From assembly GCF_057098645.1 (NCBI RefSeq), contig NZ_CM169472.1: a DNA stretch of 64,000 nucleotides; one strand, written 5' to 3'. Within the stretch, counting starts at the first letter, position 1; each line of letters begins with the position of its first letter. Below, piece after piece: positions 47,701 to 50,700 of the stretch. A program made the position numbers.

Positions 47701-50700
47701 TGAGCCATGTCAGCTATGCCGGTCATCTGGCGCAGGCCGGTGTGGATATCACGCTGATTTACTCAGGGACGCACAAGGTGGATGGCAATCAGTTTGAAGC
47801 CTTACCGGCAGAGGTTCGCCAGGACATGCAGCAGCGCATTGATGCGGCGCGCCGGATGTTTGCCGAAAAAGTGGCGATGTTTACCGGTCTGTCTGTTGAT
47901 GCCGTCACGGGAACAGAGGCCGCCGTTTTTGAAGGTCAGTACGGCATTGATGCCGGGCTGGCGGATGAATTAGTCAATGCGTCGGATGCCATCAGTGTGA
48001 TGGCCACGGCGCTGAACAGTAATGTCAGAGGAGGCACTATGCCGCAATTAACTGCAACGGAAGCCGCCGCGCAGGAGAACCAGCGAGTGATGGGGATCCT
48101 GACATGCCAGGAAGCGAAAGGACGTGAACAGCTTGCCACGATGCTGGCAGGACAACAGGGCATGAGCGTTGAACAGGCCCGGGCGATTCTGGCCGCGGCG
48201 GCACCGCAGCAGCCGGTGGCATCCACGCAGAGTGAAGCCGATCGCATTATGGCGTGTGAAGAAGCGAACGGTCGTGAACAACTGGCGGCAACGCTGGCGG
48301 CGATGCCGGAGATGACGGTGGAAAAAGCCCGCCCGATCCTGGCTGCTTCACCGCAGGCGGATGCCGGACCCTCACTCCGTGATCAGATCATGGCACTGGA
48401 TGAGGCAAAAGGGGCTGAGGCGCAGGCTGAACAGCTGGCTGCCTGCCCGGGAATGACTGTGGAGAGCGCCCGGGCTGTGCTGGCTGCGGGATCAGGTAAG
48501 GCAGAACCGGTCTCTGCATCCACAACCGCCCTGTTTGAACGCATCATGGCGAACCATTCACCGGCAGCGGTACAGGGTGGCGTGCCACAGACGTCAGCAG
48601 ACGGTGATGCGGACGTGAAAATGCTCATGGCCATGCCATGAAGTCAGTGCTGACCATCAACAGGAGGTTTTTACAATATGGTAACGAAAACCATCACTGA
48701 ACAGCGTGCGGAAGTACGTATTTTTGCCGGTAATGATCCGGCTCATACCGCCACAGGCAGCAGCGGGATTTCCTCGGCAACACCGGCACTGACGCCCCTG
48801 ATGCTGGATGAAGCTACCGGGAAACTGGTGGTCTGGGACGGACAGAAAGCCGGTAGTGCGGTTGGCATACTGGTACTGCCGCTTGAAGGCACAGAGACGG
48901 TACTGACGTATTACAAGTCGGGGACCTTTGCGACGGAGGCAATCCGCTGGCCTGACAGTGTGGATGAACACAAAAAGGCCAACGCCTTTGCTGGCAGTGC
49001 CCTGAGTCACGCGGCGCTGCCGTAACACGTTATCAGGCCACCGCGGTGGCCTGACTGATTTCTGAATGAAAGGAACTGATTTATGGGATTGTTTACGACC
49101 CGCCAGTTACTCGGTTATACCGAACAAAAAGTGAAATTTCGTGCGCTGTTTCTGGAGCTGTTTTTCCGCCGTACGGTGAATTTCCATACCGAAGAGGTGA
49201 TGCTGGACAAAATTACCGGAAAAACGCCGGTGGCGGCCTATGTCTCCCCGGTTGTTGAAGGAAAAGTGCTGCGTCATCGCGGTGGTGAAACCCGCGTGTT
49301 ACGTCCGGGCTACGTCAAGCCGAAACACGAATTTAATTACCAGCAGGCGGTTGAGCGTCTTCCCGGTGAAGATCCGGCTCAACTGAACGACCCGGCCTAC
49401 CGTCGTCTGCGTATCATCACCGATAACCTCAAACAGGAAGAGCATGCCATTGTCCAGGTGGAAGAAATGCAGGCGGTGAATGCCGTGCTGTATGGCAAAT
49501 ACACCATGGAAGGGGATCAGTTTGATACTGTCGAGGTGGATTTTGGACGCTCTGAAGGAAATAACATTGAGCAGGCCGACGGTAAAAAATGGTCTGAGCA
49601 GGACCGTGATACGTTTGATCCGACGCATGATATTGACCTCTACTGCGATCAGGCCAGCGGTCTTGTGAATATTGCCATTATGGACGGTACTGTCTGGCGT
49701 CTGCTGAATGGTTTTAAGCTGTTCCGCGAAAAACTGGATACCCGTCGCGGCTCAAATTCACAACTCGAAACGGCAGTGAAAGACCTGGGGGCGGTGGTGT
49801 CTTTCAAAGGGTATTACGGCGATCTGGCCATTGTGGTGGCGAAAACGTCTTATGTGGCAGAGGACGGTACCGAAAAACGTTATCTGCCGGAGGGCACGCT
49901 GGTCCTGGGAAATACGGCTGCAGATGGGATCCGTTGTTACGGTGCCATTCAGGATGCGCAGGCGTTGTCCGAAGGTGTGGTGGCTTCTTCCCGTTACCCG
50001 AAACACTGGCTGACCGTGGGCGATCCGGCCCGTGAATTTACCATGACGCAGTCCGCACCGCTGATGGTGCTGCCGGACCCGGATGAGTTTGTGGTGGTGC
50101 AGGTGAAATAATCCGTGAGCGGGGGCGAAATGCCCCCGTGTCTTTTTTCACAGGGGGCTGATATGGCAACAAAAGAAGAAAATCAGAAACGTCTTCGTCA
50201 ACTGGCTGGCCTGCTGGGGCGCGAGGCGGATATGTCGGGGAGTGCTGCGGATATTGCGCAACGTGTGTCTGAGTGGGAAGAGGAGCTTGCTGCTTCCCGG
50301 GAGGGCATTATGCCTGGTGATGAGAGCGGGCCTGAGCAAAATCACACAGACGATGGTGAGCAGTTGCACAACACTGATGCTACGGATGATGTTAAAGCGG
50401 TCCGTGTGCGGAAATGCCTGCATGTGATGGGGTATTGCCCGGAGACAGGCCGTCCCGTTGAACTGACGTACCGGGGCATGCGTGTTCTGGTGCCATCACC
50501 ACTGGCGACAGCCATGATACAGCACGGAACGGCTGAGCATGCGTGATTTTCAGAATGCCTTTGATGCTGCCCTTGCCGGGGTGGACAGCACGATTGTTGA
50601 AGTGATGGGGCTCTGTGCGCAGTTCACCTCGGGGGCACAGTGTGGCAGCGAAGTTCAGGGGGTTTTTGACGATCCGGAGTCGCAGGGGTTTGCCGGTAGC

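Follow-up and report, generated by a model that had tools for sequence, protein, structure and literature searches.

The protease/scaffold gene and its repeated module

The window, by which we mean the whole analysed stretch of 64,000 nucleotides (nt) of contig NZ_CM169472.1 (assembly GCF_057098645.1), contains on its plus strand an open reading frame (ORF) at 47136–48641, which encodes a protein of 501 amino acids (aa) and starts with a GTG overlapping the end of the portal gene. Judged from its sequence, it is the lambda C-type prohead protease/scaffold gene of an E. coli prophage and the homologue of gene 5 of phage 21, in which an S49 prohead protease is fused to a scaffold region. This assignment, derived from the ORF list, Pfam and the comparison with phage 21 and lambda, had been made in an earlier sequence-only reading of the window and is supported by both the Peptidase_S49 domain and the position in the operon. 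The present analysis concerns the scaffold region, in which three tandem copies of one protein module follow each other. The features described below likewise lie on the plus strand, unless specified otherwise.

The S49 (SppA-like) peptidase domain was assigned to aa 146–293 (47571–48014), in the N-terminal two thirds of the protein. Peptidase_S49 (PF01343) is matched with an E-value of 1.1e-34, which passes the curated cut-off, and a PDB sequence search with the whole protein aligned the SppA structures 3rst and 4kwb to aa 77–290 (E about 1e-15).

The presence of three tandem copies in the C-terminal scaffold region was the central claim of the sequence-only reading, which also suggested a self-comparison of the gene. 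Performed at the protein level as a BLOSUM62 diagonal self-scan of the 501-aa product, this comparison scored 73, 64 and 62 on the diagonals shifted by 50, 47 and 97 aa, respectively, whereas the maxima of 500 composition-keeping shuffles of the C-terminal 200 aa averaged 29.1 (standard deviation 4.2) and never exceeded 48. A hidden Markov model (HMM) of the module places the three copies, termed R1, R2 and R3, at aa 314–358, 367–407 and 415–453. Moreover, each of four PHROG profiles from single-module scaffold/Nu3 proteins, among them 8399 ('head scaffolding protein') and 8940 ('capsid assembly protein'), hits the protein in three distinct places, and the claim of three copies thus holds. Searches on the DNA were blank: Tandem Repeats Finder gave no array (0 rows) because the copies are too diverged at the DNA level, and an exact-seed repeat search likewise found no array, only short seeds at spacings of 150–153 nt. 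The repeat is therefore visible at the protein level only.

Annotated counterparts of the modules are found in the GenBank record M81255 ('Bacteriophage 21 head gene operon') as three features of the type repeat_region, named Tri1 box, Tri box and Tri3 box (104, 111 and 114 nt), which map to 48106–48209, 48246–48356 and 48387–48500 of the window. The Tri1 box is overlapped by R1 (48075–48209; 82 bits with the module HMM), which has a long first helix like the single copy of lambda, the Tri box by R2 (48234–48356; 72 bits), and the Tri3 box by R3 (48375–48497; 65 bits), in which GAE takes the place of the GRE motif. The modules are separated by linker 1 of the PQQPVAST type (48210–48233) and linker 2 (48357–48374). 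After R3, sequence comparison and the register of the repeat identify an extra helix, ALFERIMA (aa 465–472, 48528–48551), which resembles the first helix of R2 (EADRIMA) and R3 (LRDQIMA) as well as ALDRLMQ of lambda and closes the third unit; it is followed by the C-terminal tail (48552–48638). The conserved module core comprises 39–45 aa and the copies are spaced by 47–53 aa, with start-to-start distances of 159 and 141 nt. The period of 36 aa or about 108 nt given in the sequence-only reading does not agree with these values, although it fits the lengths of the Tri boxes. In the register that provides three complete units (50, 47 and 52 aa) the repeat spans 48105–48551; the earlier bounds of 48040–48520 were accordingly right in location but end before the third unit is complete.

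An AlphaFold2 model of the module, calculated from a diverse alignment of 84 sequences, is a compact three-helix bundle with helices at module residues 2–12, 21–28 and 35–44 and a mean predicted local distance difference test score (pLDDT) of 87.9. Among the positions that vary little or not at all are those of the EA.GRE turn, which connects helices 1 and 2, and the hydrophobic residues within the helices. In the model of the 200-aa scaffold product (gp6, see below) three helical units are connected by low-confidence linkers and followed by a disordered tail. The pLDDT falls below 50 in linker 1 (gp6 residues 57–63), which is predicted to be flexible, and in the tail (residues 174–200), and it is lowered between the helices in linker 2 (block mean of 64 over residues 101–110); the helix closing the third unit is predicted at residues 163–172. 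The predicted template modelling score (pTM) of the scaffold model is 0.28, and therefore no fixed arrangement between the modules is indicated. On the basis of these models, the predicted fold of each module is a three-helix bundle, which is joined to its neighbours by fast-evolving flexible linkers. When the full-length protein and its scaffold part were compared with the PDB sequences, SppA was the only match, and this through the protease domain alone, leaving the module unmatched; among the Pfam and NCBIfam families searched with the scaffold part and with single-module relatives, none covers the module. Other tandem three-helix bundles such as the protein A domains, GA modules and UBA/CUE domains share 5–18% identity with it at scores typical of a generic fold, which indicates structural analogy rather than shared ancestry.

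The gene is embedded in a lambda-like head operon with the order large terminase (43382–45367), W-like gene (45351–45557), portal (45554–47146; Phage_portal_2, E 6e-101), protease/scaffold gene, D-like decoration gene (48678–49025; HDPD match) and E-like major capsid gene (49083–50111; Phage_cap_E match). Minus-strand ORFs over the region were set aside as by-products of a GC-rich coding strand.

The putative nested gene, its relatives and length alleles

A putative second gene is nested in frame within the first one and shares its stop codon. It extends over 48039–48641, is annotated as a coding sequence in M81255 and in the complete phage 21 genome (OL657228), and corresponds to gene 6 of phage 21, the analogue of lambda Nu3. 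The Shine-Dalgarno sequence GGAGG (48030–48034), read in the sequence and annotated as a putative ribosome binding site (RBS) in both records, lies 4 nt 5′ of the internal ATG. Sequence comparison revealed that GGAGG and ATG are kept in phage 21, Gifsy-1, N15, phi80 and lambda, and the internal ATG at 48039 probably yields the 200-aa scaffold protein gp6. The site (48027–48041) encodes Gly-Gly-x-Met and is found in lambda at residue 309 of C (lambda locus 2828–2845). The annotated Nu3 of lambda begins inside the protease region at aa 239, 70 codons upstream of this conserved site; lambda might express an additional, shorter product of about 131 aa, or else scaffold synthesis may begin at different sites in the two lineages. 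Measured against lambda Nu3 in the strict sense, the window differs in that the codon for the start at residue 239 is ATT, and in that three modules with a short linker replace one module with a long linker. In OL657228 two 'CII binding sites' are annotated within gene 6 at 2409–2422 and 2643–2656, which correspond to 48044–48057 and 48278–48291 on the minus strand of the window; both were annotated on a match to the pattern ttgynnnnnnttgy alone and are probably chance matches within a coding region.

The closest described relative is gene 5 of phage 21, which also encodes 501 aa and is 98.6% identical at the nucleotide level over the full length; internal RBS, ATG and the three repeats all stand at positions matching those of the window. 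The differences amount to a few substitutions, for example in the tail, where ALFERIM in the window corresponds to AMFEHFM in phage 21. In OL657228 the two products are labelled 'capsid protease/scaffolding protein' and 'scaffolding protein'. The Tri boxes carry the remark 'function unknown; putative' in M81255, which also annotates the nested gene 6 together with its putative RBS. The triplication is thus already on record as the Tri boxes of phage 21 and is not new. The gene of the window itself belongs to a prophage in the E. coli chromosome and is 100% identical to the copy in the O145 strain RM9872. The source paper on the phage 21 head operon is that of Smith and Feiss (Gene, 1993); the statements made here rest on the GenBank annotation.

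Lambda C is 59% identical to the product of the window at the amino acid level and shares with it the operon position, the S49 domain and the nested in-frame arrangement with a common C-terminus. It also shares the module motif ENxRIMGIL.CEEA.GRE...PGMTV..A..ILAAAPQ and the ALDRLM helix after it. The sequence-only reading put the excess in length over lambda C at about 60 aa, in agreement with the exact difference of 62 aa between 501 and 439 aa. Lambda C contains a single module behind a linker about 36 aa longer than that of the window, and the excess thus results from two extra modules minus a linker shorter by about 36 aa. The scaffold products of lambda (201 aa) and of the window (200 aa) are nearly equal in length. 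The major capsid protein of the window is 62% identical to lambda E (342 versus 341 aa) and the portal protein 61% identical to lambda B; these likenesses in sequence hint at no altered capsid geometry.

The prohead protease STM2605 of Gifsy-1 from Salmonella, a gpC homologue of 498 aa, contains three modules in the same order and the same internal start. Its modules are 76% (R1), 78% (R2) and 59% (R3) identical to those of the window. Over the scaffold part the identity is 53–60% (53.5% in tblastn, 60% in an alignment) compared with 88% for the capsid protein, from which it follows, on the evidence of these identities, that evolution is much faster in the scaffold than in the shell assembled with its help.

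As the sequence-only reading presupposed, the repeats are not a property of all homologues: in lambda, phi80, N15 and the Aeromonas phage PhAER-1, a single module follows a long linker rich in Ser, Thr, Ala and Gln. A scan of the 200-aa scaffold against 1.84 billion representative proteins (E ≤ 0.001) retrieved 126 relatives, of which 105 have one module, 13 two and 6 three, and many matches with two or three copies are fragmentary members of the phage 21 lineage. P0185 and P0183, both distant proteins with two copies, look from their sequences like independent duplications. Several database homologues are unusual in their make-up (P0080 with 721 aa, P0084 with 577 aa and P0001 with 657 aa); some of them are fused to tail fibre or side tail fibre-like sequence directly after the end of R3 (AAGSG), another has an internal duplication of 156 aa, and they are either real rearrangements or misassemblies. 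In addition, P0144 (258 aa), from the 50% representative library, resembles the C-terminus of Gifsy-1 gp5 as if translated from C-to-T converted DNA, with changes of Ala to Val, Pro to Leu or Phe and Thr to Ile or Met throughout; it is probably a database artefact of converted or damaged reads.

Within the species the gene is common. A copy covering at least 80% of it is present in 1,865 of 5,426 complete E. coli genomes, about a third, and a 240-nt stretch spanning R1 and R2 is covered to at least 80% in 1,815 of them. At least 80% of the gene is covered by 19 phage records, by 18 of them fully and by phage D2 to 87%, from nt 198 on; each of the 19 aligns in a single piece with no gap of module size.

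Beside the three-copy form several length alleles exist. An allele of 482 aa, found in many assemblies with operons that otherwise look intact, has lost aa 383–401 of R2 (19 aa). In the alleles of 451 and 452 aa, 49–50 aa are lost by fusion of R1 and R2 at several breakpoints, leaving two copies; a 472-aa allele lacks 29 aa, and a 551-aa allele has gained 50 aa and thereby contains four copies. In one carrier of the 482-aa allele (GCA_000458315.1, positions 7090–7200 of the locus) we located an in-frame deletion of 57 nt relative to 48282–48338 of the window, which removes the end of helix 2 and the whole of helix 3 of R2 and has its junction at a short CTGGC direct repeat. In this carrier the head-tail operon otherwise appears intact; the allele has entries in 3,592 blocks of the assembly collection. 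A probe for the deleted 57-nt segment was found at 2,758 places in 1,735 genomes and a flanking control of equal length at 2,908 places in 1,860 genomes, which implies that about 5% of the E. coli gene copies are without this segment of R2. Judged from these alleles, the old repeats still recombine while the three-copy form dominates: about 95% of the gene copies keep the tested segment, and the minor alleles have two, about 2.5 or four copies.

Role and origin of the modules

We consider it very probable that the locus is a phage 21-type C/Nu3 gene, that its triplication is ancient and maintained by selection, with the modules as putative protein-binding units which would place scaffold and protease in the procapsid. 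In this scheme, one reading frame would give rise to two products, the 501-aa S49 protease with a scaffold tail (gp5) and the 200-aa scaffold (gp6). The modules would bind the capsid protein or other scaffold chains and thereby retain the scaffold, together with the tethered protease, within the procapsid during its assembly, three modules offering more contacts per chain than the lambda counterpart of one module on a long disordered linker. The linkers would serve as spacers and perhaps as cleavage sites, and the protease would degrade the scaffold once assembly is done. A protease that carries the C-terminal sequence of the scaffold and is built into the procapsid together with it is also found in the herpesvirus UL26/UL26.5 and phage P2 gpO systems. 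No sequence relation to UL26/UL26.5 or P2 gpO emerged from our searches, none of which was aimed at them, and the herpesvirus and P2 scaffolds are not known to contain a triplicated three-helix module. Docking inside the procapsid is probably what the module does.

The identity of the binding partner is the point at which a second scenario diverges. The modules might chiefly drive self-association of the scaffold or recruitment of the portal, that is, nucleation of an initiator complex, rather than bind the capsid protein. This scenario differs from the one proposed above in the binding partner only, and we regard it as possible although clearly the less likely choice. Lambda Nu3 is a scaffold for which interactions with itself, C, E and the portal B have been reported and which is gone before DNA packaging (PMC3224144). 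The reported relations of Nu3 with itself, with C and with B and the need of Nu3 for portal incorporation are in favour of self-association or portal recruitment, whereas the Nu3–E interaction, reported from a two-hybrid analysis, speaks for capsid binding as well (PMC3224144). Modules common to protease and scaffold would, in addition, permit their co-assembly.

With regard to the origin, the sequence-only reading had considered a recent slippage event, and it is conceivable that the scaffold region of this very prophage grew by slippage or unequal crossing-over, as the in-frame variants of 451/452, 472, 482 and 551 aa in close relatives demonstrate that recombination between the repeats does happen. 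The divergence between the copies nevertheless makes such an event highly improbable. In codon-aligned comparisons, R1 and R2 are 67.5%, R1 and R3 51.2% and R2 and R3 56.9% identical at the nucleotide level, far from the high identity between adjacent copies expected after a recent duplication, and Tandem Repeats Finder was blank. Codon positions 1 and 2 are 59–80% identical between the copies, whereas position 3, with 32–44%, is near saturation. This contrast indicates a long divergence under selection on the protein and excludes recent slippage as well as a function at the DNA level. Furthermore, the same architecture is encountered in phage 21, which was sampled in the 1950s and whose Tri boxes are annotated, in Gifsy-1, where the order of the copies is unchanged, and in about 1,815 of the 5,426 complete E. 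coli genomes. Three copies are also present in the distant metagenome proteins P0124, P0127 and P0130, whose scaffold parts are 46–59% identical. Among the five three-copy lineages, copies at the same position are on average 63.7% identical and copies at different positions 49.2%, and when a module is compared with another protein, it matches the copy in the equivalent position best in 53 of 60 cases. This correspondence implies a single triplication before the lineages split, in the ancestor from which the phage 21 and Gifsy-1 lineage descends, each copy being kept thereafter by selection at the protein level. A slippage origin of the three-copy state was thus rejected on the grounds of both the divergence between the copies and their copy-by-copy correspondence across lineages.

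The selection on the individual copies was estimated from the proportions of nonsynonymous (pN) and synonymous (pS) differences. Relative to Gifsy-1, the modules have a pN of 0.20 and a pS of 0.70, corresponding to a ratio of nonsynonymous to synonymous substitution rates (dN/dS) of about 0.12, similar to 0.14 in the protease domain and distinct from about 0.39 in the linkers and tail; since the synonymous divergence (dS) from Gifsy-1 is saturated, these ratios are rough, which tempers the argument, but modules and linkers remain clearly distinct. By these sequence comparisons, each copy is under purifying selection. A deviating pattern was noticed with phage PhiR12_1, relative to which pS is 0.07–0.12 for the protease domain as well as for R1 and R2 but rises to 0.52 in R3 (48375–48497). 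Such a jump suggests that a mosaic recombination joint lies within the repeat region.

Further observations weigh against the proposed scenario. About 5% of the E. coli genes still carry an allele in which one module is damaged or absent, within operons that otherwise look intact. Three intact copies may thus not be strictly required, or the prophages carrying these alleles may be defective. Moreover, the scaffold N-terminus of the phage 21 type is marked 'putative' in the database records, and the annotated Nu3 start of lambda is not kept in the window, where Ile235 (ATT) occupies its place.

It might alternatively be argued that the 'boxes' are DNA elements, either repeated protein-binding sites or regulatory repeats, and not protein modules, as insinuated by the GenBank label repeat_region and by the two CII sites that OL657228 marks, from the pattern alone, on the strand opposite to gene 6. 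We give this view hardly any credence, as the conservation between the copies resides in codon positions 1 and 2 and not in position 3, orthologous copies differ far less at nonsynonymous than at synonymous sites (pN versus pS), and protein profiles recover the module in distant phages that have no DNA similarity; a frame-independent DNA motif conserved across copies and lineages was not seen. That the repeat is a mere artefact of an Ala/Gln/Glu-rich low-complexity tail has a next to negligible likelihood, for although the region is rich in Ala and the BLAST low-complexity filter trims parts of it, the shuffle control rules out a low-complexity origin, and the confident fold prediction and the profile matches likewise speak against it.

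Meaning for lambda-type head assembly

The locus is an ordinary and well-conserved prophage head gene, whose triplication has been known since the head operon of phage 21 was sequenced and does not reflect a recent or unusual event. Added here are a predicted fold of the module, a census of its family with about 126 relatives that mostly have one copy, the finding that no curated domain model covers it, and a catalogue of length alleles. These additions concern a region that is structurally among the least understood parts of lambda head assembly, and the natural length variants are usable to probe the function of the scaffold region in the lambda class. As a more far-reaching idea, which we put forward tentatively and consider rather doubtful at this stage, the module might be a docking unit that anchors S49-type prohead proteases and scaffolds in the procapsids of many phages, its copy number setting the number of contacts per chain. 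If this were true, the E. coli alleles, whose copy numbers are two, about 2.5, three and four, would constitute a natural series for the valency of the scaffold, which would bear on the fidelity of capsid assembly or on the loading of the protease.

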